A stretch of DNA of 64,000 nt from an uncultured Veillonellaceae bacterium (GTDB lineage Bacteria; Bacillota; Negativicutes; JARBTT01), in assembly GCA_963805085.1 (NCBI GenBank), contig CAWDTA010000005.1, forward strand, positions 352,001 to 416,000, given 5' to 3'. Of this stretch, positions 23,086 through 51,760 are shown piece by piece (the first letter of the stretch is position 1; every line of letters starts with the position of its first letter). The notes beneath the pieces are model-generated. The model did not search any database and was not told the DNA's origin. It saw only the letters and a program-made list of their open reading frames with translations. The translations under genes were made by a program, and so were the position numbers.

Positions 23086-23162
23086 GCGCCTGTAGCTCAG
23101 TTGGATAGAGCAACGGCCTTCTAAGCCGTGTGTCGAGCGTTCGAATCGCCCCAGGCGCACCA
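23086..23162 (+). tRNA. tRNA-Arg(TCT)
   Basis: Acceptor GCGCCTG/CAGGCGC, anticodon loop CTTCTAA, TTCGAAT, CCA end; one A-C mismatch in the T stem. Confidence 0.95.
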
Positions 23163-23426
23163 TTTGAAATCAAAGACTTTCAGTTTTTACTGAGAGCCTT
23201 TTTTGTTTTCGCGTGTCCAGCGGGACTGTGCTGGTGGGTGAAATCAAGGCGGGAAACTAGGTACATTTGTACTTGGTTTCCCGCCTTTTAGTTTCGAGAA
23301 TGGTTAAAAAACTTGCATTTTGATTGGTAAATATATTATGATATCATCATAATATAATAAAAAAATTATCAAAAAACAATCAAAACATTATCAAAAGTGA
23401 TGATGCTAAAAAAAGGAGAATTTATT

Positions 23427-23852
23427 ATGAAGTATGATAATAGTTGTCTTCATTGTACAAAAGATCAAAGGTTGCAGGATTTAATGATAGAAATAGCCGA
23501 ACTGGAGATATCAACTTTATATTTATTTAAGGAACAAACTTATAAAGGACGGTGTCTGTTATCATTCAAAGGTCATAAGAGTGAATTGTTTGAGCTTACT
23601 GATGAGGAATTAAAGCTGTATAGTCAAGATCTTGCTAAAGCATCCAAGGCTATCCAGCAGGCATGTAAGCCGGATAGAATCAACTATGGGGCTTATTCTG
23701 ACAATTTGCTGCATCTTCATTTTCACCTTGTTCCAAAGTACAAGGAAGGTTATTCTTGGGGCAGTACGTTTGAGATGATGCCTGCCAATAAGAAATTGCT
23801 CAGTGTTGTGGAATATGATCAGTTAATTCGTTTTATTAAAATTCATTTATAG
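23427..23852 (+). CDS. HIT-family hydrolase
   Basis: CLHC near N-terminus, HLHFHLVP histidine triad; start after AAGGAG. Confidence 0.9.
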   Translation: MKYDNSCLHCTKDQRLQDLMIEIAELEISTLYLFKEQTYKGRCLLSFKGHKSELFELTDEELKLYSQDLAKASKAIQQACKPDRINYGAYSDNLLHLHFHLVPKYKEGYSWGSTFEMMPANKKLLSVVEYDQLIRFIKIHL

Positions 23853-23889
23853 GATAAATGAAATGAACGTATTAAATTTTATATAAATT

Positions 23890-24172
23890 TAGAATAAAGG
23901 GCGTTGCTTAAATGGAAGTATAAAACAATTTAAGAAATCCAAGCAGATATCGCCACTTTGGTGGCAAGAGTAAGAAATACCCAAGGGATTGCGGCGGATA
24001 TTTTTAGTCAGGAAAAAGTTAAGCTTCAGAGGCTATGTGGATAGATGGTCATTTGAAACCTAAAATTCTTGCGCACCCTCTTCAGAGGATTGCACAAGAA
24101 GCTGGAATGAACATTCTAGAAGATTGTAAATTTATCATGGTAGAAGAGAATAAAATTGGTGCTGAAAAACTT
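23890..24172 (+). pseudogene. fragments of a CoA-acylating aldehyde dehydrogenase
   Basis: IATLVARVRNTQ...FSQEKV and MWIDGHL...IAQEAG...FIMVEE...EKL pieces; internally deleted, ends at att copy 1. Confidence 0.5.
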
Positions 24173-24256
24173 CTAAGCCGTGTGTTGAGCGTTCGGATCG
24201 TCTTAGGTGCAACATATGAAATCAAGGGTTCTAGCATTTTGCTAGAGCCTTTTTTG
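24170..24256 (+). repeat. tRNA-Arg 3'-half att copy 1 + hairpin
   Basis: CTTCTAAGCCGTGTGTTGAGCGTTCGGATCG...ATATGAAATCAAGGGTTCTAGCATTTTGCTAGAGCCTTTTTT. Confidence 0.92.
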
Positions 24257-24359
24257 TTTTTCTTATAATGAAGAATTTATATTTTTAATAAACCAATCGG
24301 GATAGGATTAGCAAAGTAGAAGTAGAATACTAACGATAGTAATATAATCTGGTATAGGT

Positions 24360-25358
24360 GTGAAAGAGAGGCGATATGTTATGGATAGGAAACAAAGCGA
24401 TAAAGAGATAAAAGAAATCTATTTGGCGGGAGGTTGTTTTTGGGGGACTGAGAAATATCTGTCTTTAGTCAAAGGAATCGAGTCTACCGAGGTTGGGTAT
24501 GCCAACGGCCGTACAGAAAATCCGAGTTATGAAGATGTCTGCACAGGGGAAAATGGTCATGCGGAAACGGTCAAGCTCCTCTACGATCCGGCGGTGATAA
24601 GTTTGGAATTCATTTTGAATCTTTTTTATAATGTGATCGATCCGGTGGCGAAGAACCAGCAGGGGAATGATATAGGAGTACAGTACCGTACCGGTATTTA
24701 TTATGTGGATGATAAGGATCAAGAGCGGATTTTGAATTCTTTACAGACCTTGCAAGAGGGATATGATAAGCCGATTGCCATCGAGGTCGAACCGCTGCGA
24801 AACTACTATGCCGCAGAAGAGTGGCATCAGAAATATCTAGATAAGAATCCGCAGGGATATTGCCATATTCCCAGTAGAAAATTTAGCCAGGCTGAGCAGG
24901 CGATAGATCCTTCGGTGCTCTATCAAGTAAAATCAAAGTCTGTATTAAAAAACACGCTCACGGAGATGCAATATGCGGTGACCCAAAAGAATGCCACTGA
25001 ACCGCCTTTTCAAAATCCGTTTTATAATAATTTTCGGAAAGGTATCTATGTTGATGTAACGACAGGAGAACCGCTTTTTGTTTCGACTGACAAATTTGAA
25101 TCCGGCTGTGGCTGGCCTAGCTTTTCTAGACCGATAAGATCGGAGAGTCTTCATGAAGTAATGGATCCGAGTCATGGCATGGAGCGGATAGAAGTGCGCA
25201 GCAAGACGGGAAATACCCATCTTGGCCATGTTTTTACGGACGGGCCAAAGGCTTCCGGTGGGTTAAGGTACTGCATCAACAGTGCAGCGCTAATGTTTAT
25301 TGGTAAGGAAGAAATGGAAGAAAAAAATTATGGATATTTGCTGCCACTGTTGGATTGA
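24360..25358 (+). CDS. msrAB: bifunctional methionine sulfoxide reductase (likely start 24381)
   Basis: AGGCFWG, GHAETV, YHQ-type WHQKY; [20 protein letters not shown]. Confidence 0.95.
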
Positions 25359-26782
25359 TCTATGGATTCATTTGGAGGAATAGTAGTTCTTAAACCTATT
25401 TGATTGCCTCGTGACCAGCAGACAATTGCCCCGATCGCTCCTATGATCGCTGCTACAAGATAGGTATCATGTAATGCAAGTGTAAAGCTCGCAGTAGTAT
25501 CGTTAAGAAGTGAATATCTAGCTAACTGATTGCTAAATACAGCACCACTAACAGCAACCCCCATCACTTGCCCAATATTTCGCATTAAAGCCAATGTACC
25601 AGATGCGACTCCAATATTATTTTTGATTACGCTCCCCATAATGGCATTATTGTTTGGTGCAAGAAATAATCCAGTACCAAGACCGACTAAGGCCAGGCCA
25701 AAGGCATTCATAACGTAGGTAAAGTTTTCAGTGTGACCGAGAAGTATGATGCCACTACAAATTATTACCATCCCAGCAGAAGTAAGTAATCGCGAACCAA
25801 AACGGTCGGATAGTGCCCCTGCCACCGGGGAAGCTAGCATCATCGCTCCAGGAAAAGTACTCATCAATAAACCAGCTGTTCTTGTTGATAGGGTTAAAAA
25901 GCCCACAAGGTAAAAAGGCATAAGAAAAGTTACGGTATACTGAGTCAAATAATTAATCAAAGCAGCAAGATTGCCTGCTAAAAAGGCTCGATTTTTGAAG
26001 AGCCCAAGGTTTAACATTGGGTGACCGCATTTGATTTCGATATAAATGAACATCGCAAATGAAATTAACGCGATAAAAAATAAACTTATAACAATAGACG
26101 AGTGCCAGCCCCATATATGTCCATGACTTACAGCTAGTAAAAACGTACTAAGACAGGTAAAAATAGTAACTGCTCCGCCAATATCGAACTTCTGAGGCTT
26201 TGTAATTTTTATCGGGAGTATTTTCCACGACCAAATTGTGCTAATGATGCCTATAGGAATGTTAATAATGAATATAGATTGCCAACCATAGGTTCCAACT
26301 AAAATCCCGCCAAGGGATGGACCGGCAGCAAGACCAAGCGAAACAAACATAGCGTTAATGCCAATAGCTTTTCCTCTCTCTGAAGGCTGGAAGGTATCAG
26401 TTATAATAGCTTGAACAACAGCCAAGATCGCCCCTGCGCCAATTGCCTGCAGTCCCCGCGAGGCGATAAGTACCCATATATTTGGTGATAAACTATTTAA
26501 TGCTGACGCTACGGTAAAGATGGCAAAACCACCGACAAAGACTGGGCGGTGACCGTACATATCACCAATTCTACCATAGGTTAAAAGTAGGCTGCTAATA
26601 AGTAGCAGATAAACTATTACTACCCACTCAGTATTGGTAACGGTTGTATGGAAATAGGTTGTAATTTCTGGTAAAGCAATGTTTACAATACTGGCATCAA
26701 GTGTGGACATAAAGACACCAAGTGCTGTCGTTGAATGGATGAGCCACTTACGAACTTCTGGAGTTTTCAATAAGTATAGCAT
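25328..26782 (-). CDS. DHA2-family MFS efflux transporter
   Basis: [31 protein letters not shown]; about 14 TM segments. Confidence 0.9.
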
Positions 26783-26912
26783 GTATTATTCCTCCAATTT
26801 GGTTAATGTAGCGCGTCATAGCACCGTATAATATATTAAACTCCTAATGGTAATGTTCCATATAGACAAGCGACTCAGCTATAAAATTAGCAAAGCTTCC
26901 ATACAAACGGCA

Positions 26913-26999
26913 CTTCAAGTCGTCGTGTGTCGAGCGTTCAAATCGGCTCAGGCGTGCCATATGAAATCAAGGGTTCTAGCTTTGCTAGAACCTTTTTTT
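26913..26999 (+). repeat. tRNA-Arg 3'-half att copy 2 + hairpin
   Basis: CGTGTGTCGAGCGTTCAAATCGGCTCAGGCGTGCCATATGAAATCAAGGGTTCTAGCTTTGCTAGAACCTTTTTTT. Confidence 0.9.
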
Positions 27000-27077
27000 G
27001 CTTATTAAACTAAGCTGTAATTATCTATACTTTGGTATATAATGATAAAGTAATTTAGTAGAATAGGAGCAATATGA

Positions 27078-28685
27078 ATGGAAGCACGGTCTATCTTAAA
27101 TAATAAATATTATTTGTACATGACAGAATTTTTTGCCGGAATGTCAGTAATGGCGGTGGAACTTGGAGCAAGCAGACTTTTAGCACCGTATTTTAGTTCT
27201 TCACAGATTGTATGGACAATTATTATCGGAACTATCATGATTGCAATGGCGCTGGGGAATATCTGGGGTGGTAGGAGTGCGGATAAGGATCCCAATCCGG
27301 ATAATTTGTATACGCGTATGATTATTGCTGCTCTATGGATTGCCGCAATACCGTTAGTGGGCAAATATGTAATTTTAGCCGTGTCAGCAGCACTTGTTTT
27401 AACCATAAACAATAGTTTTTTAATTTTAGCAGCCTTTTTATCCTGTATGATCATCTTTGTATTTCCGCTGTTCTTGTTGGGGACAGTTACCCCTTCTCTG
27501 GTGAAATATACGGTAGATAGCTTAGATGACAGTGGAAAGATCGTGGGTACACTGGTTGCGATTAATACAATTGGAAGCATCATTGGTACATTTTTACCTA
27601 CCTTTGTTACGATTCCGGCAGTTGGGACATCCATTACATTCTTAATATTCTCGGGGATTCTTTTGGCACTTGGTCTGATTTACTTTATAGACAAAAAAGC
27701 GAAGAAAGTGAAATGTATCATTGGTGTTATTTTATTCCTTGTTTGCAGTATATTTGGTTCTTCAGACAGTTTAGCTTTTTGGGAAAACAATCTCTTATAT
27801 GAAGGAGAATCTATTTATAATTATTTGCAGGTGAAGGAAATCGATAATAGTGTAATTCTTTCTACAAATGTACTTTTTGGCGTTCAATCTATTATGAAAA
27901 AAGATGATAGCTTGACGGGAATGTATTATGATTATGCACTTGCTGCACCTGTCATGTCTGGAATTGGGACGAAAGAAAATACAAAAATTTTAGTACTCGG
28001 TATGGGAACAGGGACTTATGCAAAACAATGTCAAAAATATTTTACCAATGCATCTATTGAAGGCGTAGAAATCGATCAGAAAATAACTGATTTGGCGAGT
28101 AAATATTTCGAGCTTCCCGATAACATAAAAGTGACTACTTATGATGGTCGGGCGTACTTGAATGCTACAGATAAAAAATATGATGTAATTATGGTAGACG
28201 CGTACCAGGACATAACGATACCTTTTCAGATGTCTTCCATAGAATTCTTTACTATGGTTAAGGAGCACTTAACAAAAGATGGCATTATGGTTGTCAATAT
28301 GAATATGCATACCGAAAAAGAGGGAAATATTAATCAGTATCTGTCAGACACAATCGCAAATGTTTTTAATGTGGTATATACAGTGAATGTAGATGGAACA
28401 ACCAACAGAGAATTGTTTGCAACACAGAATAGGGAGGTTGCTAAAAATTTTGAGCAGAATACTGTGGAATTAAGCAATTATAAATTAAAGGCATTAATGC
28501 ATAATGTTGCAGGCAATATGGATAGATACATAAAGGGAGAGTATCTCTTGACTGATGATAAAGCACCAGTAGAACTTTTAGGAATGCAGGTAATCGATGA
28601 ATTAATCCAGCATGAAATAAGTTATTACAAAGAAGTATTCAAAAAAGAAGGGATAAATGGATTACTAAAAAATATATTATTCTGA
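27078..28685 (+). CDS. membrane-domain/spermidine synthase-like methyltransferase fusion
   Basis: N-terminal TM domain (ELGASRLLAPYF), C-terminal LVLGMGTG, VEID, DGR, YDVIMVDAY. Confidence 0.88.
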   Translation: MEARSILNNKYYLYMTEFFAGMSVMAVELGASRLLAPYFSSSQIVWTIIIGTIMIAMALGNIWGGRSADKDPNPDNLYTRMIIAALWIAAIPLVGKYVILAVSAALVLTINNSFLILAAFLSCMIIFVFPLFLLGTVTPSLVKYTVDSLDDSGKIVGTLVAINTIGSIIGTFLPTFVTIPAVGTSITFLIFSGILLALGLIYFIDKKAKKVKCIIGVILFLVCSIFGSSDSLAFWENNLLYEGESIYNYLQVKEIDNSVILSTNVLFGVQSIMKKDDSLTGMYYDYALAAPVMSGIGTKENTKILVLGMGTGTYAKQCQKYFTNASIEGVEIDQKITDLASKYFELPDNIKVTTYDGRAYLNATDKKYDVIMVDAYQDITIPFQMSSIEFFTMVKEHLTKDGIMVVNMNMHTEKEGNINQYLSDTIANVFNVVYTVNVDGTTNRELFATQNREVAKNFEQNTVELSNYKLKALMHNVAGNMDRYIKGEYLLTDDKAPVELLGMQVIDELIQHEISYYKEVFKKEGINGLLKNILF

Positions 28686-28723
28686 ATGAAAAAAAGTGAA
28701 AAATAAGAAATTATTTACTCATG

Positions 28724-28820
28724 GCCTAAAATTTTCTGAGCTATGTGTCGAGCGTTCAGATTGCCAAAGCGCTCCATATGAAATCAAGGGTTCTAGCATT
28801 TTGCTAGAATCCTTTTTGTT
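28724..28820 (+). repeat. tRNA-Arg 3'-half att copy 3 + hairpin
   Basis: GCCTAAAATTTTCTGAGCTATGTGTCGAGCGTTCAGATTGCC...CCATATGAAATCAAGGGTTCTAGCATTTTGCTAGAATCCTTTTT. Confidence 0.9.
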
Positions 28821-29017
28821 AGAAAACAGAAGCGGCCATGTTTACATGCTTTCCGCATATTAGTTTAAATTGCCCTCTTACAAGGTTTTAGGTTTATTTT
28901 TCACGCTAACAACATATTAATTAACTTAAAATTAATATGTTGTTAACTAACTATTAAAAGCCCGGAAGTATAATATAGAGGATAATAGTTATTCGACAGA
29001 AATAGAGGGGAAGTAAA

Positions 29018-29389
29018 TTGAAAGTACTAATTGTCGACGATTCAAGTTTTGCTAGGCGAACACTAGAAAAATTTCTCAAAAAAAATTTTCCTAATATAGT
29101 AATTACTTTAGCTTGCAATGGGCGAGCAGGTTGTATTGCATTTGCCCGCGAAAAACCGGATATTATATTTACTGATCTCTTAATGCCTGAAATGGTTGGG
29201 CAGGAGATGATCAAACAAATACGAGAAATCGATGAACAGGTTCCGATTTTTGTTTTAACAGCTGATATTCAGCAGGTCACTAAATTTGAGCTGATTCAGT
29301 ACGGTATTACCGCATTTATCAATAAGCCGCTAACCAGCGAAAATGGTGAACTTATCAAGCAAAAGATAGGGGGGCGAATTGATGCTTAG
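29018..29389 (+). CDS. single-domain response regulator (CheY-like)
   Basis: LIVDDS, TDLLMP, LTAD, KP. Confidence 0.9.
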   Translation: MKVLIVDDSSFARRTLEKFLKKNFPNIVITLACNGRAGCIAFAREKPDIIFTDLLMPEMVGQEMIKQIREIDEQVPIFVLTADIQQVTKFELIQYGITAFINKPLTSENGELIKQKIGGRIDA

Positions 29390-30023
29390 TGAAATGCAAA
29401 AAGACGTGCTGACGGAAGTCGTGAATATAGCGATTGGTCGGAGCGCGGCTCTCCTATCTGAAATGACAAGACAAAAAGTGGAATTATCTGTTCCTTGTAT
29501 TGATCTTCTTACAATAAGGGATGCAGAATCCCCCATTTTTTCACAGATTTCCGTTGATAGGGGGCATATCATCTCTTCGTCGATCAAATTTGGAACTGAA
29601 TTTAAAGGAAAAGCGTTTTTACTATTTCCGGCTCGTCAGGCTAAGCTTTTAGTTGGTTTGTGCCTAGGCGATAGTGTCGATGAAACTAATATAAATGATA
29701 AGAATTTATTAGATACTGATTTTGATGTTTTAATGGAGATTAGTAATGTTATTTTGAACGCTATTATGGGGGGGATGGGGAACTTTCTTGAATCCAAGCT
29801 AGTATACTCGCTACCCGAGATAGAAATGATGTTCGTCTCCGCAGAGGGGCAAAGGGGATTGCTGCAGGGACAAATGTATGTACTGGTATTGCAAGCAAAA
29901 CTTGATTTAGCAGATAAGCAGTTTGAAGGCACGATTTTGATTGCCTTAAGCTTAGATTCGGTAGCGCAGTTAATCAGCCGAATTGATCGATTGGTGGGGA
30001 ATTTGCATGAATCAGGTATTTGA
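29382..30023 (+). CDS. CheC-family phosphatase-like protein
   Basis: Two ExxN motifs (EVVNIAIG, EISNVILN). Confidence 0.85.
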   Translation: MLSEMQKDVLTEVVNIAIGRSAALLSEMTRQKVELSVPCIDLLTIRDAESPIFSQISVDRGHIISSSIKFGTEFKGKAFLLFPARQAKLLVGLCLGDSVDETNINDKNLLDTDFDVLMEISNVILNAIMGGMGNFLESKLVYSLPEIEMMFVSAEGQRGLLQGQMYVLVLQAKLDLADKQFEGTILIALSLDSVAQLISRIDRLVGNLHESGI

Positions 30024-30969
30024 TCATATTTTGGATCATCTGAATTTGGGAGTCTTACTTGTTGACAATAACCACAGTGTGCTAGTCTGGAATAGCTGGC
30101 TGGAACGAGCAAGCGGCGTCCCAAAAGACGAAGTGATTGGCAGACCGCTTGGTGAGATTTGCCCATGCTTTCAAAAAAATAGCTTCAAAGATATGCTGAA
30201 CAATGCCATCGTCAATGGTGAGCATCGATTTTGCTCGGGCATGTTACATAATGGATTTATTTATCCCAAGGATAGGGAGGATATCACTGAAAAAGGTCGG
30301 CAAAACATGCAGATTGAGGCATTTTACCAAGACGGGGAAGTTTTCGCGTTGATCCAGATCAGCGACATTACCAGTCAGTATCGACGGATACACTGCTTGA
30401 AACACTTGGTCAAAGAGCTAGAAGTCGACTATGAATCTATTAAGGAATCGGAGGAGCATGCTAAACGCAATGCTTTGTATGATCCTTTGACGGGATTGTG
30501 CAATCGAACCTTATTTTACGATCGACTCAGGCATTCAATAGATCAGGCTGGTAGGAGTGGACGCCTTGTAGCTTTGCTATTTTTAGATTTAGATGGTTTT
30601 AAATCGGTGAATGATTCGATGGGGCATCTCAGCGGCGATTTATTGCTTAAAGAGGTTGCTAACCGCTTGAATACAGTTGTGCGAAAAACGGATACCGTCT
30701 GTCGATTAGGTGGCGACGAATATACAATTATTCTTCCTGACATAAAATCGAAAAATGATGTTGAAATGACTGCCAAAGATATCCGCAGGTTATTATCGGA
30801 CGAATTTAATCTGGGGGATAAAAACATATTTATTACTGTCAGTATTGGGATTAGCCTTTTTCCTGTAGATGGAGTCGATTCGGAAAATCTGGTAAAACAT
30901 GCTGATAGTGCTATGTATTCAGTAAAGAGCACTGGTAAAAACGGTTATCAGTTTTACTCGATCAAATAG
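30007..30969 (+). CDS. PAS-GGDEF diguanylate cyclase
   Basis: YDPLTGLCNR, DLDGFKSVNDSMGH, RLGGDEY; N-terminal PAS. Confidence 0.92.
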   Translation: MNQVFDHILDHLNLGVLLVDNNHSVLVWNSWLERASGVPKDEVIGRPLGEICPCFQKNSFKDMLNNAIVNGEHRFCSGMLHNGFIYPKDREDITEKGRQNMQIEAFYQDGEVFALIQISDITSQYRRIHCLKHLVKELEVDYESIKESEEHAKRNALYDPLTGLCNRTLFYDRLRHSIDQAGRSGRLVALLFLDLDGFKSVNDSMGHLSGDLLLKEVANRLNTVVRKTDTVCRLGGDEYTIILPDIKSKNDVEMTAKDIRRLLSDEFNLGDKNIFITVSIGISLFPVDGVDSENLVKHADSAMYSVKSTGKNGYQFYSIK

Positions 30970-31102
30970 CCTGTTCCCACGCCCATCCCTTAGTTGGTTT
31001 TAACTCCAAATTAATATTGCTATAATTAAAATTGATAATAATTATAGCAATATTAAGATGAAAATATAAATATAAATTCTGTTAGGTCAATAATATATAT
31101 TT

Positions 31103-31175
31103 GGCAGACTTACTGAAAAGTAAGGACGTAAAGTTGTGAGTCTGAGGACGATTGTCTATAATTGCTAGGTTTCCC
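31103..31175 (+). ncRNA. variant/degenerate c-di-GMP-I riboswitch
   Basis: GGCAGACTTACTGAAAAGTAAGGACGTAAAGTTGTGAGTCTGAGGAC...ATTGCTAGGTTTCC aligns with the GEMM at 1896-2003; upstream of an MCP. Confidence 0.7.
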
Positions 31176-31315
31176 TTGGAAGAGGTACTGAAACCAAGGT
31201 ATTTATCTGGGCTTTTGGTGTTTACATTCGGGGGAAAAAAATTTAGGGGAGTTTGTTCATTAAATCAGTTACAAACAAACTCTTGTCTAATTTTTAATAA
31301 AGGAGAATAATACTA

Positions 31316-33283: not shown

Positions 33284-33307
33284 ATCAATTCTAGAAATAG
33301 TAGGAGG

Positions 33308-43665: not shown

Positions 43666-45093
43666 TTATACTGTAAGTTGTTTTTCTAAAGAAAGTGGAA
43701 TATGCAGTCTAATTGTAGTACCTTCGCCTGGTATACTTGTCAAGTCAATGACACTATCATGCTGCTCGGCAATATATTGTGCAATAGATAGACCGAGACC
43801 GGTTCCGACTGTGAGTTTTGAACGGGATGTATCAACCCAGTAAAAACGGTCAAAAATCTTAGATTGGCATTCTTGTGGTATGCCAATTCCGGTGTCTTGA
43901 GCCGTAATATCTAAGTAAATGCTAGTTCGGTATGAGACGATAGAAATTGTTCCACCGATAGGCGTATATTTGATACTATTTTCGATAAAAATTCGTAACA
44001 GTTGCTTGATAGAGGCAGAATTGGCATAAATAACAGCAGTATCATTTTTACTTAGAAGTATGCAGTGACTTGGGGCGATGAGGCGAGTTTCCTGTACGAC
44101 TTCTTCAATTAGGTTCTTTATATTAAAGTTGACCTTATTCTGAACCTGCTTACTCCGGTCGGCTCGTGCAAAAAAAAGTAACTTTTCAATAAGTTCATGC
44201 ATATTGGCTGCTTCAGATTTTATTGCACTAATTCCTTCATCTAATATATCTGGGTCTTGTTTACCCCAACGGTCTAGCATATTTGCATAGCCAATGATAA
44301 CAGTGACGGGAGTACGAAGTTCATGGGAAGCATCTGCAGCAAAACGTCGCTGTTGTTCAAAGCCTGTCTGAAGCCGATCTAACATATGATTTGTTTTCGC
44401 CAATTTGTGCAGTTCATTATTGTTATTGCTGACATCAATGCGCTTTCCAAGGTCATTAATATCAATCGCTTTAGCAAGGAAAGTTATATCGCGAATGGGT
44501 CGCAAAATGTTGCGGATGATAAATAGGCCTGACAAGATGATAATCAATAGTCCGAGGAGGCTGCTTATTTTCATGATAGTAGATAAACTTTCTAGAAAAT
44601 CTTCTTTTTCCGAGATTATTTTGAGAAAATGCAATTGGTATGTATGTTCATTGTGTTGTACCAATTGTTTTAGGTAATAAAAATGAGTATGGTTCACCGC
44701 GAAGGCTGGTGCTACTTCTTCACGGAGCAAAGTGTTTTCAAGTAGATGAACACCTTCCTGATCGTTCATCTGAAGTTGGTGAGTACTGAGTGTAGAAGGG
44801 GCATTGTCTAGTACCAATGTATTTTGCTCGTCGAAAACCCTGAGGATAATATCGGGTACAAGAATATTTTCATTTAATAAATGTTCATCCAGGGGATGAT
44901 CGGCTACTATGTAACTCATTACATTATTGGCACTCATTTTAAGGTCGTTTGACGCCTGGGAATACAAGATATATTGTACCCACCAGACTGAAATGAAACT
45001 GGTGATGAATAGAATACACAATGAAACTGCTATATAGAGTATTGATAATTTAATCGAATTTGGTAAGGTAATACTCTTAATCTTTGACCACAT
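43666..45093 (-). CDS. HAMP sensor histidine kinase (possibly decaying)
   Basis: ADASHELRTP H-box, ENSIKY, DTGIGI, GTGLGL. Confidence 0.88.
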   Translation of the reverse strand: MWSKIKSITLPNSIKLSILYIAVSLCILFITSFISVWWVQYILYSQASNDLKMSANNVMSYIVADHPLDEHLLNENILVPDIILRVFDEQNTLVLDNAPSTLSTHQLQMNDQEGVHLLENTLLREEVAPAFAVNHTHFYYLKQLVQHNEHTYQLHFLKIISEKEDFLESLSTIMKISSLLGLLIIILSGLFIIRNILRPIRDITFLAKAIDINDLGKRIDVSNNNNELHKLAKTNHMLDRLQTGFEQQRRFAADASHELRTPVTVIIGYANMLDRWGKQDPDILDEGISAIKSEAANMHELIEKLLFFARADRSKQVQNKVNFNIKNLIEEVVQETRLIAPSHCILLSKNDTAVIYANSASIKQLLRIFIENSIKYTPIGGTISIVSYRTSIYLDITAQDTGIGIPQECQSKIFDRFYWVDTSRSKLTVGTGLGLSIAQYIAEQHDSVIDLTSIPGEGTTIRLHIPLSLEKQLTV

Positions 45094-45472
45094 AGCCTAC
45101 TCCTCTGACCGTATGAATATAATTTTCTTCAAACTGCTCGTCTAGTTTGCTGCGCAAATAGCGAACATAGACATCTACTACATTTGTATTTCCTGTATAT
45201 TCATAACCCCAGGCCTCTTGTAGAATGTGTTCGCGATTGAGCACGATGTGCTAATTGCGGACCAGATATTCGAGGAGGCCATATTCTTTTTTTGTCAATT
45301 CCACGGGCTGTCCGCTGACCTGCGCTTCGTAACGGTTTGGAAATAGGACAAGATTTTTTACGTGTAATTTTCCTTCGTCGGCTATTTGGTGCTTACTCAT
45401 ATTTTTACGAAGTGTTGCACGGATTCGGGCTAGAAGTTCTTGAATGGCGAATGGTTTGGTTAGATAGTCATA
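45077..45472 (-). pseudogene. OmpR-family response regulator remnant
   Basis: DYLTKPFAIQELLARIR...NVVDVYVRYLRSKL...TVRGVGY; most of the receiver domain missing and an in-frame TAG. Confidence 0.85.
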
Positions 45473-45832
45473 AGCTTTTTTTAATCTAATTCTAATCTTG
45501 AACTAATAATCTTGCAAAAAATAGTGAGGTAATAATAATGCCAAATTTTGTTATCCAGGGACAGATTTTCATATTAGCGTGAATAAAATTGAGGAGAAAA
45601 TGTTGAATATAAAACCTAAAAAATATTTTAAAAATAAGCATTCAGTAAAGGTTAACGTGAAATTATTTCCACTAAAACAACCAATACTAGTGACAACAGG
45701 TTTATTGGCTTCTGAAGTAACTATGCTGGAAGCTTACATGATATTGGAGAAGTGGGGATATAGCATAAAGTTCCATAGATAAATATTTTGCAGGAATCAC
45801 GGGACGGTTCTTCACTTAAATACGATTAGAAT

Positions 45833-45887
45833 AATTCGCCGTTAGAGAGGTGATACGCAGAACCATATCATTGGTAACGACGAAAAT
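45833..45887 (+). repeat. palindromic SCC/rlmH-like att site C
   Basis: AATTCGCCGTTAGAGAGGTGATACGCAGAACCATATCATTGGTAACGACGAAAAT. Confidence 0.75.
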
Positions 45888-46508
45888 GCTGAGGCAGTTG
45901 CAAAACTTGTTGCAGAAAACTATGGAGTTGAAACTGATAGTTTTCAAATAGATGTTACTTCTGAAAACTCTGTTAAAGATGTAGTGAGTGCAATTATTAA
46001 AAAATTTGGCAGAATAGATATACTTATAAATAATGCAGGAATTACAAGAGATGCTAGAATAATGATGATGAAAGCAGCAGATTGGGAAGCTATATTAAAG
46101 ACAAACTTAACAGGTGCATTTAATTGTACAAAATTAGTTTCTAAACATATGCTTAAACAAAGATATGGAAAAATTATAAATATGACAAGTGTGGTAGGAA
46201 TCATGGGGAACATTGGACAAGCTAATTATTCAGCTTCAAAAGCAGGTCTTATAGGGTTAACAAAAACAACAGCGAAAGAACTAGCAGCACGGGGAATCAC
46301 AGTCAATGCAATAGCACCCGTATATATAAAATCCGATATGACGGAGGTACTTTCTGATGAAGTATCTAGAAAAATGCTATCATTAATACCGATGGAGGAA
46401 TATGGGACTCCTGAAGATATTGCAAATACAGTATTATTTTTAGTGTCAGATAAAGCAGGATACATTACTGGGCAAGTGATTAATGTAGATGGCGGAATGC
46501 TTATGTAA
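45870..46508 (+). pseudogene. fabG: 5'-truncated 3-oxoacyl-ACP reductase (FabG-like SDR)
   Basis: NNAGITRD, YSASKAG, ITGQVINVDGG present; Rossmann TGxxxGIG N-terminus absent, open frame begins at att site C. Confidence 0.8.
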
Positions 46509-46637
46509 ATACTGATTTTATTAGATTAACCTTCCGTTATTCGCAATTTTTGTCCACCAATAAAAGATAATATGAAATGAATTTGAAGCTGTTACATGGA
46601 AGATAGCTGTTTGAATTAATGCTAATTTGCTATGTGG

Positions 46638-46760
46638 AGACCTAGTATTCTCAATAAAATCAAAGCCTAAAAAGTCTAAGCCCTGTTTCAAGCGTTCGAA
46701 TCGCCCCAGACACACTATTTATCAATCAAGGGGTCTAGCATTTTACTAGAGCCTTTTCTG
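46638..46760 (+). repeat. tRNA-Arg 3'-half att copy 5 with left arm
   Basis: GCCTAAAAAGTCTAAGCCCTGTTTCAAGCGTTCGAATCGCCCCAGACACAC...CAAGGGGTCTAGCATTTTACTAGAGCCTTTT. Confidence 0.88.
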
Positions 46761-46822
46761 TTTAAAAAAATAAAAAAAACATGATTTTTGTAATAAAAAA
46801 ACATGTTTCGATTTACTTTCGC

Positions 46823-47116
46823 TTGCAATCCCCAAGAAATGGATTATAATTAATAATAGGTGGAAATTAAAAAAATCGCCGTGTCCTGAGAGTGTTAGAG
46901 CACTCTCAGGCACGAGCAGGTGTTATGGGCACCTACACGTAACAGCTAGCTGTCTACGACGACAATTTATTATACCGTGCTTTTCTCTTGATTACAAGGG
47001 AGCTGGCTCATTCGGCATAATACGATTGAAGCTTTGGCAGAGGCTTAGCGTCTGCATGCAATCAAAATGAAGCAAAGCGCATGTGTAGGTAGGATAACCT
47101 CGCATGCGTTTTTTTT
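46823..47116. ncRNA. putative sense/antisense RNA pair
   Basis: + promoter TTGCAA-N16-TATAAT (46823-46850); - promoter TTGTAA-N17-TATAAT (~46996-46968); hairpin GTCCTGAGAGTG/CACTCTCAGGCAC; + terminator ~47077-47116. Confidence 0.4.
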
Positions 47117-47919
47117 AGCTTCCCCTGAAACAAACTGTATGTTGGTTTCTTCTATCTGCATTAGTGGATAGAAGAAACCACGTGCAGGATGATGACGGGG
47201 GGAATATAAATTGTATCAGTACAGGGTAGTAAAAAGTTGTGGTCAAGGCAGCGGAGCAGCATGTGGCGGGGAGCCATCCTCGCCACAACCAATGGGAGAA
47301 TTTCGTTCTATTTACAAGGGACAAGATTTGTTTTCTTGGGAAATAGAGGTTCTGTAAATGTATAAAATCTATAAAATGACAAAAGACCTAATTGTGGCTG
47401 AGGAAGTAGAGAACGCTGATTTTACAGTTAAATTGCTTTTAGATATGGATAAGAAAGAATATGTGATGGTCAAGCGGAAGTTAATATATATAATCTATTA
47501 CTAGTTGGTCAAGTCAATGAAATAGCTGACGACATTTCATTCGAAGAGTATAGAGACATTATCTATGCGAAATTGGACCAGGAATTATTAGATATGGGAA
47601 TAAAACCAAGGAGGATGGCCGATAAGTATTGATGGAGTTTAATGGTAAAATTAATAGATAGACTATAAATCATAAAAGGCAAATGCCTGCTAAATTTTGT
47701 GTGAATTTGGCAGGCATTTGCCTTTTATGAGAATTGATGAATATTTATTGGAATTTGTGAAAAATATTATATGGTATCGAATCTCGTGGCTTTCGTGATC
47801 TTGATTTTTATAATTAATGCATGACATTGCATGGAGTGGAGAACATAAACGTTGATTATTAGTAGCGGTATAGTATAAAATAAATGTATTATAAAGTTTG
47901 TTATAAGGGGTATTTGTTT

Positions 47920-50900
47920 ATGATTCAAACTACGAATCGTCAAGTGACAATTCAATCGTTAAAGGGGAAGCTTTTAGCTGCTTATGAATATTTAATAGAA
48001 CATAGTGATCAAGAAAATGCTGAAAAAGTTAAGCAATTAGCAGGTAAATTAGTAAATGAGGAATTTACTATTGCCTTTTGTGGACATTTTTCTGCAGGAA
48101 AATCGAAGATGATCAATCGCTTGGTGGGGGAGAATTTACTGCCGTCAAGTCCGATTCCAACGAGTGCTAATCTTGTAAAAGTTAAAGCGGGAGAAGAGTA
48201 TGCAAAGGTGGTTTTTAAAAGTGGAAAACCTCGCTTATATCTCGCTCCCTATGATTATAAAATGGTAAAAAACTATTGCAAAGATGGGGATCAAATCAAG
48301 GAAATTGAGCTTAGCCATGCAGATTCCCAGTTGCCAAGTCAGACTGTTATTATGGATACGCCCGGTATTGATTCTGCCGATGATGCGCATCGTATTGCCA
48401 CGGAATCCGCGATTCACCTTGCTGATTTGATTTTTTATGTAATGGACTACAACCATGTGCAATCAGAACTCAATTTTATGTTTACAAAAGAGTTAACAGA
48501 GGCCGGCAAAGAAGTTTATCTTGTGATTAACCAAATTGATAAGCATTCTGAGCAGGAGCTTTCTTTTGCAAAATTTAAAACAAGTGTGGTTGAATCCTTC
48601 TCCTCATGGGGCGTTAAACCGGCTAATGTTTTTTATACTTCTTTAAAAATAGATGATCACGAATATAATCAATTTCCAGAGCTGCAGGACTTTTTGGCAG
48701 AAAGGTTAAAGGAAAAAGATAGCTTACTCCTTCAATCTATTTTTCATTCCCTGCAAAAAATTATCAAAGATCATTTGGCTTTAACAAAGAAAAAATGTGA
48801 ATTCGAACTGGAACCTTTCAAGGATATTTTGAATGAATTATCGATTAAGGAGCAGGAAGCGCTAGCAGATACTTATAGCAGTCTGAGTGAAGAGAAAAAC
48901 GCTTTAGTCGAAGGTAGCGAAAAGGCAGAAAAGGAATTTGATTCCGAGGTCAATAAAATCATGTCGAATGCCTATTTATTGCCTTTTGAAATCAGGGCGT
49001 TAGCGGAGTCTTATCTTGCATCCTGTCAGCCTAAATTTAAGGTTGGACTCTTATTTACAAAACAAAAAACTTTAGCAGAGAGACAGGAAAGACTGAATCT
49101 CTTTTACCAGCCTATGCTCGAAAAAACAAAATCACAGCTAGAGTGGCATCTTCGTGATTTTCTGATAAGATTTTTGAAAGAGAAGCGGGTCGAAAGTAAA
49201 GAGCTGCTTGCCAAAATCCAGAGCTTTAATGTGAATTTTTCAAGCGAATTATTAGAAGCCGCTTTAAAAACGGGAGCACATTTATCAGGCGAGTATGTTT
49301 TAAATTATACTGCTGATGTGGCAAATGAAATTAAACGCCTTGCGCAAAGTATTTTAGCTGGGCTTAAGATCGAAATACTACATGCTATACATGATAAAAA
49401 TACAGCTATCCAAGCAAGAATAGCACAAAAATCAGAAGGCTTAAAGCGCTATATCATCGCACTTGAGCAGGTGAAAAAATATGAATTGGGCGCCAGTCTT
49501 GCGCAAACGAAGCTCGAAACGCTGATTAGTGAAACAAATGGAGTGACAGATGACCGCTTTCATTTGTTTGAACTAGAAGAAGAGGAAGTTGAGATAGTTT
49601 ACGGGGAGAACGGGCATGTAGCGCAGGTACAGAAAAAAACAATCGCGCCACGGAACGAGCCGATCTTAAAAGAAAGAAATCCATTAGCCGTAGAATCTTC
49701 AGACCGGATGAAACATACAGCTGAAAAATTGAAGAAGACCGCACAGCTTGTTCAGGGCTTGCCAGGCTTTAAAAAGCTTGCAAGCGAACTGAAGGAAAAA
49801 GCGGAAAGATTAGATCATAAAGGTTTTTCTGTTGCATTATTTGGGGCGTTTAGTGCCGGTAAATCTTCTTTTGCTAATGCGTTACTCGGAGAAAGGGTTT
49901 TACCTGTTTCACCTAACCCAATGACAGCGGCGATCAACAAAATTAGACCGATCAATGCATCGTATCAGCATGGGACTGTTATCGTTAAGGTTAAAGAGGA
50001 ACGGGCGATGCTCGAAGATGTAAATAATGCCTTAAAAATATTTGAGTTTGATGCGGAGAGCTTAGTCGATGCAATCGCAAAAGTAGAAAAATTGAGTGGT
50101 GATTTGGGACAACAAGGTGCAATCGAAAAGACAAATTATACTTTTTTACAGGCGTTTACACGCGGATATGTTGCCTTTAGCCAACAGTTAGGTAAAACAC
50201 TCCAAACAACGATTGCTGAGTTTAGTGATTATGTTGCGCTGGAAGAAAAGTCTTGTTTTGTCGAATGGATTGATCTTTATTATGATTGCCCGTTAACCCG
50301 TAAAGGAATTACGCTAGTCGATACCCCGGGGGCGGATTCAATTAATGCCCGTCATACCGGAGTAGCCTTTGACTTTATTAAAAATTCGGATGCTATTTTG
50401 TTTGTGACCTACTATAATCATGCATTTTCAAAGGCAGATCGGGAGTTTCTAATTCAATTGGGGCGTGTAAAGGATTCATTTCAATTAGATAAAATGTTTT
50501 TTATTATCAATGCAATTGATTTAGCCGATAACGAGGAAGAAAAGGAAACCGTTGTTTCATATGTCCATGAGCATCTAATAAAATACGGAGTCAAAAATCC
50601 GCATTTATATTCACTGTCAAGCTTACATGCACTGAAAGAAAAGGAGGAAAAGATAGCATTTCCTGTTTCAGGTATGCTATCTTTTGAGGAGTCTTTTTAT
50701 CATTTTATTACCAATGATTTGGCGAATATGGCGGCTCAAGCATCCGAAAATGAACTGAACCGTGTTTCTCACTTAGTAGACAAGCTCGTTGATAGTACTA
50801 GAGAAGATGCTACGGTTAAGCAGCAAAAACGGGCAAACATCGAGGCAGAGAAAGCAAGTATAAACGCAATTCTTATGCAGCAGACAGCACAAAATTTAAA

Positions 50901-51576
50901 AAATCACTTAAATCAGGAAACAGAAGAATTAATTTATTATATAAAACAGCGGGTTTTCCTGCGTTTTAATGATTTCTTTAAAGAAGCATTCAATCCTACC
51001 GTGTTACGCGAGGATGGTCGTAACCTGAAAAAAGTTTTGCAGCATGCACTGAGCGAATTACTCGAACAAATCGGGTTTGACTTTGCGCAGGAAATGAGAG
51101 CAACGACGGTGAGGCTAGATCGCTTTGCTGAAAAAGTAACAGCAGAGTATCAGATAGCGCTTGTCGAAATGCTTCGTGAGATGAATCAGGATTTATCTTT
51201 TTCTGTTTTTGAATTTAAGGATAAAGAGCAAATTGATTTTGAAGTAGCTTTTAAAGATATTCAGTATGGATTATTTGCTAAAGCGATGGCTTATTTTAAA
51301 AATCCAAAAGCATTTTTTGAAAAAAATGAAAGTAAGTTAATGAGTGATGAGCTTCGTCGTGTGTTTAACACATTAGCAGATGTGTATTTACAGAATGAAC
51401 AAAAACGGATAGAGGCTTTATATGAAAATGTCATGGAGGGCGAGTTTGGCGAGCTTATTTTGCAAATGACGGAGCAGACGGATGACTTTTATTTAAGTTT
51501 ACTCTCAGCCTTAGATGGTGGGGTTCCAGCTGAAAAGTTAATGGAGATCCAGCAAAGCTTAGCAGAAATGATATAA
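47920..51576 (+). CDS. tandem bacterial dynamin-like protein (DynA/YpbR type)
   Basis: Two GTPase modules: GHFSAGKS/DTPG/NQID and GAFSAGKS/DTPG/NAID in one ~1200-aa chain. Confidence 0.9.
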   Translation: MIQTTNRQVTIQSLKGKLLAAYEYLIEHSDQENAEKVKQLAGKLVNEEFTIAFCGHFSAGKSKMINRLVGENLLPSSPIPTSANLVKVKAGEEYAKVVFKSGKPRLYLAPYDYKMVKNYCKDGDQIKEIELSHADSQLPSQTVIMDTPGIDSADDAHRIATESAIHLADLIFYVMDYNHVQSELNFMFTKELTEAGKEVYLVINQIDKHSEQELSFAKFKTSVVESFSSWGVKPANVFYTSLKIDDHEYNQFPELQDFLAERLKEKDSLLLQSIFHSLQKIIKDHLALTKKKCEFELEPFKDILNELSIKEQEALADTYSSLSEEKNALVEGSEKAEKEFDSEVNKIMSNAYLLPFEIRALAESYLASCQPKFKVGLLFTKQKTLAERQERLNLFYQPMLEKTKSQLEWHLRDFLIRFLKEKRVESKELLAKIQSFNVNFSSELLEAALKTGAHLSGEYVLNYTADVANEIKRLAQSILAGLKIEILHAIHDKNTAIQARIAQKSEGLKRYIIALEQVKKYELGASLAQTKLETLISETNGVTDDRFHLFELEEEEVEIVYGENGHVAQVQKKTIAPRNEPILKERNPLAVESSDRMKHTAEKLKKTAQLVQGLPGFKKLASELKEKAERLDHKGFSVALFGAFSAGKSSFANALLGERVLPVSPNPMTAAINKIRPINASYQHGTVIVKVKEERAMLEDVNNALKIFEFDAESLVDAIAKVEKLSGDLGQQGAIEKTNYTFLQAFTRGYVAFSQQLGKTLQTTIAEFSDYVALEEKSCFVEWIDLYYDCPLTRKGITLVDTPGADSINARHTGVAFDFIKNSDAILFVTYYNHAFSKADREFLIQLGRVKDSFQLDKMFFIINAIDLADNEEEKETVVSYVHEHLIKYGVKNPHLYSLSSLHALKEKEEKIAFPVSGMLSFEESFYHFITNDLANMAAQASENELNRVSHLVDKLVDSTREDATVKQQKRANIEAEKASINAILMQQTAQNLKNHLNQETEELIYYIKQRVFLRFNDFFKEAFNPTVLREDGRNLKKVLQHALSELLEQIGFDFAQEMRATTVRLDRFAEKVTAEYQIALVEMLREMNQDLSFSVFEFKDKEQIDFEVAFKDIQYGLFAKAMAYFKNPKAFFEKNESKLMSDELRRVFNTLADVYLQNEQKRIEALYENVMEGEFGELILQMTEQTDDFYLSLLSALDGGVPAEKLMEIQQSLAEMI

Positions 51577-51618
51577 AAGATGAAAGCGGGAATGACCGAT
51601 TTTGCCAAGATTTTTATT

Positions 51619-51760
51619 CTTCTAAGCAGTGTGTCGAGTATTCAAATCACCTCAAGCGAACCATTTGAAATCAAGGGTTCAGCATCTTGCTAGAACCTTT
51701 TTGTTATTGGTGGACAAAAAATAAAGAAAAATGTTGGAACACAGAGGCAGCCCCCTTTTT
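51619..51760 (+). repeat. tRNA-Arg 3'-half att copy 6 with right arm
   Basis: CTTCTAAGCAGTGTGTCGAGTATTCAAATCACCTCAAGCGAACCATTTGAAATCAAGGGTTC...CTAGAACCTTTTT-GTTATTGGTGGACAAAAA. Confidence 0.88.

Follow-up and report, generated by a model that had tools for sequence, protein, structure and literature searches.

A row of decayed tRNA-Arg(UCU) halves in a Veillonellaceae genome, probably the remnant of repeated site-specific integration

Chromosomal integrons possess an integrase gene (intI) and an attI site with a Pc promoter that drives promoterless cassettes, whose attC sites are imperfect inverted repeats recombined as folded single strands. CIMEs are att-flanked segments without integration or transfer genes, thought to be deletion derivatives of larger elements, which lie in tandem with related ones and are defined by att sites still usable by the integrase of a resident ICE or IME; Pavlovic and colleagues reportedly described CIMEs and the tandem accretion of ICESt1-type elements in streptococci in 2004. 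According to McMurdie et al. (2011, PMC3146451), tandem islands of Dehalococcoides with adaptive cargo genes lie downstream of the tmRNA gene (ssrA); direct repeats of the 3' end of this gene delimit them, and a conserved motif adjoins the repeat. Of these islands, 15 are described there as lacking an integration module and proposed to be cis-mobilisable or fixed. The tycheposon-shaped islands of Prochlorococcus, as presented by Hackl et al. (bioRxiv 10.1101/2020.12.28.424599), have partial tRNAs and degenerated elements scattered through the island. The Islander catalogue, which accepts only islands of 2 kb or more that contain an integrase, is reported to include 2083 of 3919 islands with an anticodon-centred crossover and only four tandems of three or more in 2168 genomes (Hudson et al. 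2015, PMC4383910).

The locus described here lies in the window, as the whole analysed stretch of 64,000 nucleotides is called throughout (C5:352001-416000 of a 4.21-Mb Veillonellaceae assembly that is 83% complete, with an estimated contamination of 5.98%). With chromosomal integrons it shares a one-sided array, short gene units and a recurring repeat derived from a recombination site; it differs from them in having no intI and no attI/Pc, in units with their own regulators insulated by terminators, and in repeats that are direct tRNA halves and not attC-type palindromes (by inspection, against attC features as commonly described). The units are att-flanked and devoid of integration and transfer genes as in CIMEs, whereas decay has affected both their cores (6–11 changes in 42 nt) and their arms, and the assembly yielded no cognate integrase. 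As far as the Dehalococcoides islands are described (PMC3146451), the tandem arrangement at one small-RNA gene, the 3'-end direct repeats and the presence of units without an integration module are common to both; here, however, the anticodon loop of tRNA-Arg(UCU) is targeted, a repeat of ~95 nt with the operon terminator takes the place of the 20-bp ssrA repeat, relatives use tyrosine integrases where Dehalococcoides has a large serine recombinase, and an integration module is missing from all six units. The likeness to Prochlorococcus stops at the integrases, reported there as fragmented (10.1101/2020.12.28.424599) and here not even detectable, and the host phylum and element family differ. 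An intact tDNA with a displaced, co-oriented 3' fragment starting at the anticodon loop is also what Islander-type islands present, but no unit here contains the integrase that is found at the same site in two relatives (G018, and units 1 and 2 of G019). The locus is best read as a genome scar of a kind already known, rather than as a new integron-like machine for gene capture, and it opens no new mechanism. Island finders that demand an integrase and set a lower size limit overlook arrays of this kind; since the Islander filters, as reported, exclude them by design, their rarity in catalogues says little (PMC4383910).

The anatomy of the repeats can be read directly from the window, where ARAGORN found tRNA-Pro(tgg) and tRNA-Arg(tct) and no further tRNA. 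The tRNA operon and the seven copies are as follows.

23003 to 23079, forward strand: tRNA-Pro(UGG), first gene of the tRNA operon (ARAGORN), with a 12/12 sigma-70-like promoter at 22959-22987
23086 to 23209, forward strand: copy c0, the intact tRNA-Arg(UCU) (23086-23162) with its terminator hairpin, an attL-type junction
24165 to 24261, forward strand: copy c1, tRNA 3' half (35/42) and terminator
26910 to 27006, forward strand: copy c2 (31/42)
28728 to 28824, forward strand: copy c3 (32/42), terminator intact
33570 to 33666, forward strand: copy c4 (36/42)
46668 to 46764, forward strand: copy c5 (36/42)
51614 to 51717, forward strand: copy c6 (34/42), then a left-end arm site (51706-51717, reverse strand)

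The repeat search returned a direct repeat family of seven members, the tRNA and all six partial copies of its 3' half that the sequence-only reading had named. The partial copies begin at about 24170, 26917, 28735, 33577, 46675 and 51621, with spacings along the family of 1052, 2745, 1818, 4842, 13098 and 4946 nt, and each spans the tRNA from the anticodon loop to its 3' end, followed by the terminator hairpin; two wider repeat families take in the hairpin as well and reach about 97 nt. They are 63–87% identical to the tRNA copy over 46 nt, and 74–86% over the 42-nt tRNA part (fractions given above). When a profile of the seven copies was run against the whole assembly, as had been suggested for the consensus, exactly seven strong matches were obtained, none of them away from this locus (E 1e-22 to 1e-26); the next-best match (C2:632919, E 2.5e-9) is a tRNA half without terminator. 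Five of the six partial copies match the tRNA from the 5' side of the anticodon loop onwards. In c2 the match begins about 8 nt before this point, so that c2 derives from another type of element. Substitutions differ from copy to copy, the exact string CTTCTAAGCC being present only in the tRNA and c1, and the decay is seen directly by comparison with relatives, where the tRNA part is retained in full (42/42, 100%) in four of six partial copies. No decay gradient was seen along the array, and decay was rejected as a clock for this reason; simple insertion at the tRNA alone would predict such a gradient.

The terminator that accompanies every copy is the native one of the tRNA-Pro-(Gly)-Arg operon. 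It is directly visible after the tRNA in six relatives (G318, G276, G062, G043, G038 and G015), in which no second copy is present within the stretch fetched from each; the terminator thus belongs to the att identity block and is no cassette feature. All seven copies still form a hairpin followed by a T-run (predicted folding, -11.4 to -20.2 kcal/mol), the stem of c0 being unlike the one common to c1–c6. The earlier claim that each junction supplies a terminator holds in so far as a working-looking one is kept at every junction. The copies are more diverged than that reading implied, as the quoted 36-nt hairpin string is found with three or fewer mismatches only at 24219 and 28781. Over all copies, the terminator parts match the reference at 227 of 265 positions versus 204 of 252 for the tRNA parts. 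The terminator part is the more identical of the two for c1–c3 only and equal for c4–c6, and it does not appear to be clearly better kept; selection on the terminator against drift in the tRNA part is claimed no further than the fact that all hairpins still fold.

The segments between the copies hold the following units, whose cargo agrees with that noted from the sequence alone.

23210 to 24164, forward strand: unit 1 (1.05 kb), strong hairpin (23246-23287), HIT-domain gene (23397-23852), non-coding DNA and an ORF (24035-24268) reaching into c1
24262 to 26909, forward strand: unit 2 (2.7 kb), msrA-msrB fusion (24360-25358, forward) and MFS transporter (25328-26782, reverse)
27007 to 28727, forward strand: unit 3 (1.8 kb), a single 535-aa gene (27078-28685) with a spermine/spermidine-synthase-like methyltransferase domain
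28825 to 33569, forward strand: unit 4 (4.8 kb), CheY-like receiver, CheC/CheX, PAS-GGDEF, c-di-GMP-I riboswitch (31093-31177), dCache-HAMP-MCP and a 78-aa ORF without Pfam match
33667 to 46667, forward strand: unit 5 (13 kb, mixed), NMT1-type ABC transporter, flavodoxin-like ORF, AraC, GH31, MFS, histidine kinase and SDR
46765 to 51613, forward strand: unit 6 (4.9 kb), dispersed-repeat copy of about 850 nt (46763-47619) and a 1230-aa double-GTPase dynamin-like gene (47884-51576)

Compact in build, the units run mostly in the direction of the tRNA and have regulatory elements of their own, namely the riboswitch and regulators of the AraC and LysR types. For five of the six partial copies, the cargo genes begin only 70–400 bp past the copy. 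Unit 5, whose flavodoxin-like and SDR ORFs are both 5'-truncated, is probably a composite.

A closer inspection of the unit ends revealed attP-derived arms with arm-type sites, complete for unit 5 and also seen at the start of the DNA to the right of c6. The P arm, conserved over about 130 nt and containing the arm site TTGTCCACCAAT, is found on the left side of c5, of the copy in G027 and of two copies in G019, and the same 12-mer is found inverted just to the right of c4 and c6; it has three matches in the window, a number reached in 0 of 100 shuffles. The arm features of unit 5 are placed as follows.

33664 to 33675, reverse strand: left-end arm site
33749 to 33805, 37448 to 37503, 43249 to 43304 and 45831 to 45888: 55-nt left-arm motif with a variable hairpin
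46535 to 46674: full P arm of about 130 nt, with the arm site at 46550-46561

Elsewhere the arms are reduced, with P-arm stubs to the left of c1 (about 33 nt) and c4 (about 48 nt) and none seen to the left of c2, c3 and c6. The arm site after c6 and the ~60 nt there that are homologous to the DNA right of c4 show that another element remnant begins there, so that c6 is not the chromosomal end of the original site. Neither the 55-nt motif nor the 850-nt repeat of unit 6 matched an Rfam family.

The earlier statement that the window holds no integrase was confirmed in three ways. Domain scans of 30 ORFs between 21374 and 63501 revealed no recombinase domain, a six-frame search of the whole assembly with PF00589, PF00239 and PF07508 gave no match inside the window (the three PF00589 matches all lie outside it), and five integrases used as tblastn queries found nothing better than E 0.17. 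No mobility gene or integrase remnant was found in the window, not even a fragment in any of the six units. The two full-length tyrosine integrases of the assembly are in islands at tRNA-Arg(ccg) and tRNA-Gly(ccc), the former island having different flanking repeats as read by eye, and none tied to TTGTCCACCAAT-type arms was found; such a cognate enzyme could sit in the missing part, since the assembly is only 83% complete. If every unit once had an integrase beside its left end, six or more clean losses would be needed, because no unit retains a fragment and the cargo stands so close to five of the copies.

The same site was found both empty and occupied within one genus. In G038, the empty site is seen directly as tRNA-Pro-Gly-Arg(tct), the terminator, 1.9 kb and tRNA-Arg(acg), and in its congener G018 the site is occupied by 46.8 kb of inserted DNA, in which a 433-aa integrase adjoins the tRNA and a copy of the 3' half plus terminator forms the end; the flanks of both are 95.6% identical over 3125 nt and 89.4% over 2152 nt, and their overlap is the duplicated 49 nt. 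Three partial copies are found in G019, together with two integrase-bearing units of 26.6 and 8.9 kb, unit 1 with a 400-aa integrase placed 136 nt from the terminator and unit 2 with HTH, Xis-like, Rep-like, 416-aa integrase and TrbL genes, and a unit 3 that has no integrase and an intact P arm. A 4-kb unit of G126 contains an integrase fragment only (131-aa tblastn match, E 8.9e-10), at a place where the two ORFs lack a Pfam match. In G004, a member of another family, a 1.6-kb integrase-less unit (DUF3990) lies between two repeats differing only in T-run length. The repeat block is distributed across families of the class, being found in 15 of 401 genomes, the present one included, at E 1e-8 or better with only two candidates scored per genome. 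In the same-genus G001, fragmentary (280 contigs, 84% complete) and without a tRNA-Arg(tct) that could be found, no array unit was seen at the DNA level, the matches being paralogous MCP domains, tRNAs and the dispersed repeat only, and this genome is therefore uninformative. Two short strings were also scanned in a contig collection that lacks G019 and G027 and is silent on distribution: a 21-mer at the element-arm/core junction gave no match and a 20-mer at the spacer and start of the terminator hairpin gave one record.

With respect to the empty site, the distance between the two tRNA clusters (tRNA-Arg(tct) to tRNA-Arg(acg)) increases from 1.9 kb in G038 to 53.9 kb here, and synteny with G038 resumes only past tRNA-Arg(acg). 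The original right-hand flank was not located; the 1.9-kb gene that follows the tRNA in G038 was tried as its marker and rejected, its homologue here being on a different contig.

Contigs of close strains (about 95–97% identical in X1–X5) and metagenome contigs were compared with the array; joints between copies are ambiguous in them since the copies are mutual repeats. The contig G092:C193 is 96.2% identical to unit 2 over 2658 nt and contains an extra 810 bp, comprising the left-arm motif and a GNAT-like gene, between c1 and msrAB, placed between the T-tails of two terminators. This shows what appears to be a loss of 810 bp next to c1 in the present genome through a deletion that lies between terminator tails, away from the att core, although the difference could instead be a recent gain. 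Beside c1 the present genome has no additional DNA, G092:C193 has 0.8 kb and the X2 and X3 contigs have about 3.5 kb that includes a second c1-like copy; the fossil reading accounts for only part of this turnover among close strains. At positions 24196 and 24212 the close-strain contigs keep the tRNA-like base and the present genome does not. Much of the segment from 28.8 to 32.2 kb is without contig cover in X2, X3 and X5, which was not read as absence. Four joints (23164>24217, 24257>27002, 33617>24213 and 37502>24250), considered as unit excisions or rearrangements, were set aside because their sides are of 30–48 nt, the likeness threshold was 88 and the copies repeat one another; the plain tRNA and terminator of a relative would look alike.

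The junctions of the array are real, as metagenome contigs bridge c2 (X1 record 5, X5 records 25 and 26) and c3 (X1 record 6). An artefact of assembly from repeated sequence, to which the estimated contamination and the capacity of repeats to mis-join contigs might point, is therefore barely conceivable: these contigs are independent, come from other studies and have the same flanks, G092:C193 has c1 followed by msrAB and MFS, and every copy has distinct substitutions.

The array is probably a fossil tandem of reduced islands that arose by repeated site-specific integration at the anticodon loop of tRNA-Arg(UCU), in agreement with the sequence-only reading in so far as this saw serial scars of recombination at one tRNA. 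Each incoming element would have brought an attP with an identity block, about 95 nt long, that comprises the tRNA 3' half together with the native terminator of the operon; on integration, the copy of the element would have restored the tRNA and pushed the older copy downstream, so that successive integrations would have stacked units with displaced copies between them. The present units would be reduced remnants with truncated arms, some truncated cargo genes and drifting tRNA parts, their integration modules having been deleted or, in some cases, perhaps never present, as the perfect or near-perfect repeats around integrase-less units in G004 and G019 (unit 3) suggest that some units may never have had an integrase. 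The units with an integrase or integrase fragment seen at the same site in relatives suggest that units of this array, too, may once have had integrases; the possibility raised earlier, that each block is a decayed integrase-bearing island, agrees with the data in part, namely in the decay itself, the former integrase being deduced from relatives. The order of events, and the present immobility of the array, we likewise infer.

The same units might instead be CIME-like non-autonomous cassettes that never encoded an integrase and were inserted, excised and stacked in trans by that of a co-resident or visiting element. In this scenario the compact, mostly co-directional units without integrase or remnant would be expected, as would the G004 unit with repeats identical bar T-run length, the full P arm of G019 unit 3, the c1-side content that varies among close strains with a second c1-like copy in the X2 and X3 contigs, and the 15 Dehalococcoides islands without integration modules, for which cis-mobilisation is the proposal reported (PMC3146451). 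However, the cores are mutated at 6–11 of 42 positions, arm sites are absent to the left of c1, c2, c3, c4 and c6, and with those of c1 and c4 cut to stubs a trans-acting integrase would lack its sites; moreover, the only sequence-resolved indel is a deletion between terminator tails without core crossover, the two full-length integrases of the assembly sit in islands at other tRNAs, and there is no attI or Pc logic, because each junction is predicted to terminate transcription (hairpin and T-run). We consider this alternative, which is the integron-like platform proposed from the sequence alone, unlikely. A dedicated platform for capturing non-autonomous cassettes finds no support, since the terminator is native to the operon, the islands of relatives own their integrases, decay has reached cores and arms, no cognate integrase is found in the 83%-complete assembly and the 810-bp difference from G092:C193 appears to be a deletion outside the att core. 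A spread without any integrase, in which the 95-nt tRNA-half/terminator modules undergo homologous recombination or gene conversion, for instance with DNA taken up from relatives, and so shuffle and stack the units, would be in keeping with a segment that is long for att identity and common to families across the class, and with some strain differences that adjoin repeats. It is very improbable given that the left identity edge is sharp at the anticodon loop in unrelated genomes, that the conserved arms with arm-type sites are a hallmark of attP × attB recombination by tyrosine integrases, that copies 63–87% identical over 46 nt are a poor substrate for homologous recombination, and that integrases stand at the same junctions in G018 and G019. 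A combined form, an integrase-free cassette dock at which short units are added, removed and exchanged between strains through trans integrases or module recombination, with the terminator kept as insulator, seems to us rather doubtful; if true, the c1-side strain differences (nothing, 0.8 kb, about 3.5 kb) would be current turnover.

Under the preferred explanation, the fossil tandem of islands, integration at a tRNA hot spot can give rise to a variable region that is rich in genes and tens of kilobases long and finally leaves no trace but a row of decayed tRNA halves, and part of the 'core-like' accessory DNA may originate in this way. In related genomes, similar regions could be annotated by their anticodon-loop core, the identity block of 95 nt that includes the native terminator, the TTGTCCACCAAT arm sites, the conserved P arm and the left-arm motif. 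The junction of scar and msrAB is also present in G004, where a more decayed c1-type copy lies upstream of the msrAB homologue. There msrAB adjoins a phosphoesterase gene, the same gene being 31 kb away here; if the order in G004 is ancestral, units 3–6 would have entered at internal copies.

The tRNA-Arg(UCU) gene is followed downstream by six co-oriented partial copies (c1–c6; c0 is the intact gene with its terminator), each spanning the tRNA from its anticodon loop through its 3' end, with a hairpin and a T-run behind it. The tRNA genes lie at

23003-23079, tRNA-Pro(UGG)
23086-23162, tRNA-Arg(UCU)

and the copies start at 24172, 26917, 28735, 33577, 46675 and 51621, at copy-to-copy spacings of 1052, 2745, 1818, 4842, 13098 and 4946 nt (units 1–6). 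Over 46 nt they share 63–87% identity with the tRNA. A seven-copy profile searched against the 4.21-Mb assembly matched strongly at exactly these seven places (E 1e-22 to 1e-26), the next-best match being an isolated tRNA half on a different contig (E 2.5e-9). The repeat positions and this search confirm the six direct 3'-half-plus-hairpin repeats described in the sequence-only reading and confine all strong matches to the locus; the cargo of the intervals was also as listed there. The repeat family is real, but the exact strings quoted for it recur just twice each, because the copies have diverged.

In six relatives from within the class (G318, G276, G062, G043, G038 and G015), tRNA-Arg(UCU) is followed by a similar terminator, with no second copy of the repeat within the stretch fetched. 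The hairpin therefore belongs to the tRNA-Pro-(Gly)-Arg operon as its native terminator and is not contributed by cassettes. Two genomes of one genus, G038 and G018, form an empty/occupied pair at this gene. The order in G038 is tRNAs, terminator, 1.9 kb and tRNA-Arg(acg); in G018 a 46.8-kb insert separates the tRNA from a displaced 3'-half-plus-terminator copy and encodes a 433-aa tyrosine integrase close to the tRNA. The flanks aligned (95.6% and 89.4%) with an overlap equal to the duplicated 49 nt, the standard attP × attB outcome at a tDNA. The identity block in the window is unusually long (~95 nt) because the attP of these elements includes the terminator besides the tRNA half.

The tRNA-Arg(UCU) gene is an integration hot spot used by at least three integrase lineages, the integrases found there in G019 (two) and G018 (one) sharing 23–27% mutual identity. 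The extended repeat was matched (E 1e-8 or better) in 15 of 401 class genomes, the source genome counted, with two candidates scored per genome in this sample. Three displaced copies are present at the gene in G019.

Units at tRNA-Arg(UCU) in relatives
G019 unit 1: 26.6 kb; integrase 136 nt from the terminator
G019 unit 2: 8.9 kb; HTH, Xis-like, Rep-like, integrase and TrbL genes
G019 unit 3: 7.6 kb; kinase-helicase and PLD-like genes, without integrase
G126 unit: 4 kb; integrase present only as a fragment, beside the tRNA
G004 unit: 1.6 kb; DUF3990, without integrase; flanking repeats identical except for T-run length

The absence of an integrase from the window was borne out by three approaches: Pfam scans of 30 ORFs showed no tyrosine or serine recombinase, a six-frame search of the whole assembly with recombinase families gave no match inside the window, and neither the five integrases nor the nine ORFs from a related mobility module used as tblastn queries revealed a recombinase there. 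The array does not qualify as an integron, since it lacks intI, attC and any attI/Pc logic. The interpretation first proposed is partly supported: serial integration at tRNA-Arg(UCU) stands, whereas an integron-like platform is not supported.

In our judgement the array quite probably records, in fossil form, successive integrations at tRNA-Arg(UCU), and has since been reduced through deletion and drift. The tRNA parts of c1–c6 match the tRNA at 35, 31, 32, 36, 36 and 34 of 42 positions; among six partial copies from relatives, four are identical (42/42), and one of the other two carries the T-stem variant of another genome's tRNA, not decay. Positions 24196 and 24212 hold the tRNA-like base in close strains and are changed in the source genome. 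The P arm (conserved element DNA left of a copy) is shortened at c1 (~33 nt) and c4 (~48 nt), and two unit 5 ORFs match only the later part of their Pfam profiles (flavodoxin-like from position 72, SDR from 63). The near-identical contig G092:C193 (96.2% identity to window 24250-26903) has an extra 810 bp between the c1 copy and msrAB, made up of the left-arm motif, an ORF identified by eye as GNAT-like and a terminator; this difference sits between two terminator T-tails and not at the core. A more decayed c1 scar with the same left flank lies upstream of an msrAB homologue (76% amino-acid identity) in G004, a member of another family, and the scar–msrAB junction is either old or was moved as a block.

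That the units are trans-mobilised cassettes seems unlikely to us, although several misfits keep alive the idea that some of them perhaps moved in trans. None of the six units bears an integrase trace, genes begin shortly after the copies, no decay gradient runs along the array, and integrase-less units with good repeats are present in G004 and G019. Moreover, msrAB adjoins a phosphoesterase gene in G004 that lies 31 kb downstream in the window; should the G004 arrangement be the ancestral one, internal copies were the entry points of later units. Two soil-metagenome contigs of close strains (X2 record 9, X3 record 16) hold ~3.5 kb and a second c1-like copy, versus 50 nt here. At Dehalococcoides ssrA, islands stand in tandem between 3' repeats of that small-RNA gene, many of them lacking an integration module, and CIME and accretion are explicitly raised there (PMC3146451). 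For Prochlorococcus islands, integrations stacked on one another have been described together with partial tRNAs and degenerate elements (bioRxiv 10.1101/2020.12.28.424599). Islander, as presented in PMC4383910, requires a tDNA, a fragment of it and an integrase to call an island; it counts only four tandems of at least three islands in 2168 genomes, but discards candidates without integrase or below 2 kb. The array is thus a long, wholly integrase-free example of an already known kind.

The c2 copy retains ~8 nt more of the tRNA than the others, and a different type of arm is found left of c6 and of the G004 copy; the array therefore mixes element families. A conserved arm of ~130 nt, with core-side end ...ATAGCCTAAAAAC and including TTGTCCACCAAT, borders c5 on its left, as it does two copies in G019 and the orphan copy of G027. 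This 12-mer is inverted immediately right of c4 and c6, and occurs twice, overlapping, right of the G019 copy preceding integrase-bearing unit 2; its three occurrences in the window were reached in 0 of 100 shuffles. A 55-nt motif with a variable-sequence hairpin stands 70–100 nt past the c4 terminator, three times more inside unit 5, after the c1-like copy in G092:C193 and, weakly, after one G019 copy.

55-nt conserved motif, each with a differing hairpin next
33749-33805, past c4
37448-37503, unit 5
43249-43304, unit 5
45831-45888, unit 5
L062 93-147

Elsewhere in the genome it has a single moderate match (C2:1703266). We read it as a piece of the elements' left arm; an unrecognised cis-regulatory leader would also fit, the layout of conserved motif plus variable terminator being compatible with one, and no Rfam family matched. 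We likewise read unit 5 as a bona fide member of this element family, both arms present, and as probably composite, built from several members that have lost their tRNA halves. The DNA right of c6 starts another member, so that c6 is not the original chromosomal end.

Other displaced tRNA halves occur outside the window in the source assembly (G000). A second array, at tRNA-Arg(ccg) (C5:297504-336605), has displaced 3' halves with terminators at 316690 and 336568, a tRNA-Ser(cga) half at 298772 and an Xis-like/integrase pair (312412-313931; 39% identity to the G019 unit-2 integrase). On C2, a Gly(ccc) half bounds a 30-kb island (937923-967965; integrase 942085-943287), three displaced Thr(cgt) halves lie at 1141532, 1195557 and 1735011, two Ser(cga) halves distant from their tRNA at 200813 and 1722781, one adjoining a 518-aa large serine recombinase (199559-200383), and an orphan Arg(tct) half at 632913, followed by repeated TGGTCAC motifs.

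A dispersed repeat of ~850–900 nt with sharp ends (window copy 46763-47619) has 13 full copies, including the window's 100% self-match, the others being 80–87% identical to it, plus fragments; it also occurs in the same-genus G001 (85–86%). Neighbouring genes vary from copy to copy.

Full-length copies outside the window, examples
G000 C5:19649-20494
G000 C2:247362-248206
G000 C1:348557-349416

About 550 nt lack an ORF; their consensus has a strong predicted fold of −155 kcal/mol with 1.6% non-canonical cells, but double changes in just 4 of 163 pairs. The 3' ORF is conserved (91–120 aa in the 11 copies printed) and broken in the window copy. The ORF matched no Pfam or PHROG entry, and the repeat no Rfam family. 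Nearby, ~90 nt including a perfect hairpin (47654-47747) recur in >25 repeats (74–85% identity) clustered at G000 C2:1.39-1.52 Mb.

A 19-bp-stem hairpin directly after the tRNA terminator (23246-23287) has a 44-nt match (91%) in G001:C264, 2.8 kb from tRNA-Arg(ccg) of that genome. The tRNA-Pro gene lies ~180–300 nt past the homologue of gene 11120-11872 in G018, G023, G038, G043 and G062, versus 11 kb here (11872-23003) and 7.6 kb in G318, so variability extends to the DNA upstream of the tRNA cluster as well. Two c-di-GMP-I riboswitches are present, at 31093-31177 (+) and 1921-2008 (−). The former stands inside unit 4, flanked by genes for a PAS-GGDEF cyclase and an MCP, so this unit combines a c-di-GMP maker with a leader that senses c-di-GMP. 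Three adjacent ORFs at 58377-61259 match Pfam Ni_insertion, a PP-loop ATPase family (best hit QueC) and AIRC; we take them to be a LarC-LarE-LarB-like cluster, ordinary in appearance, and two aldo/keto reductases with 4Fe-4S domains follow.
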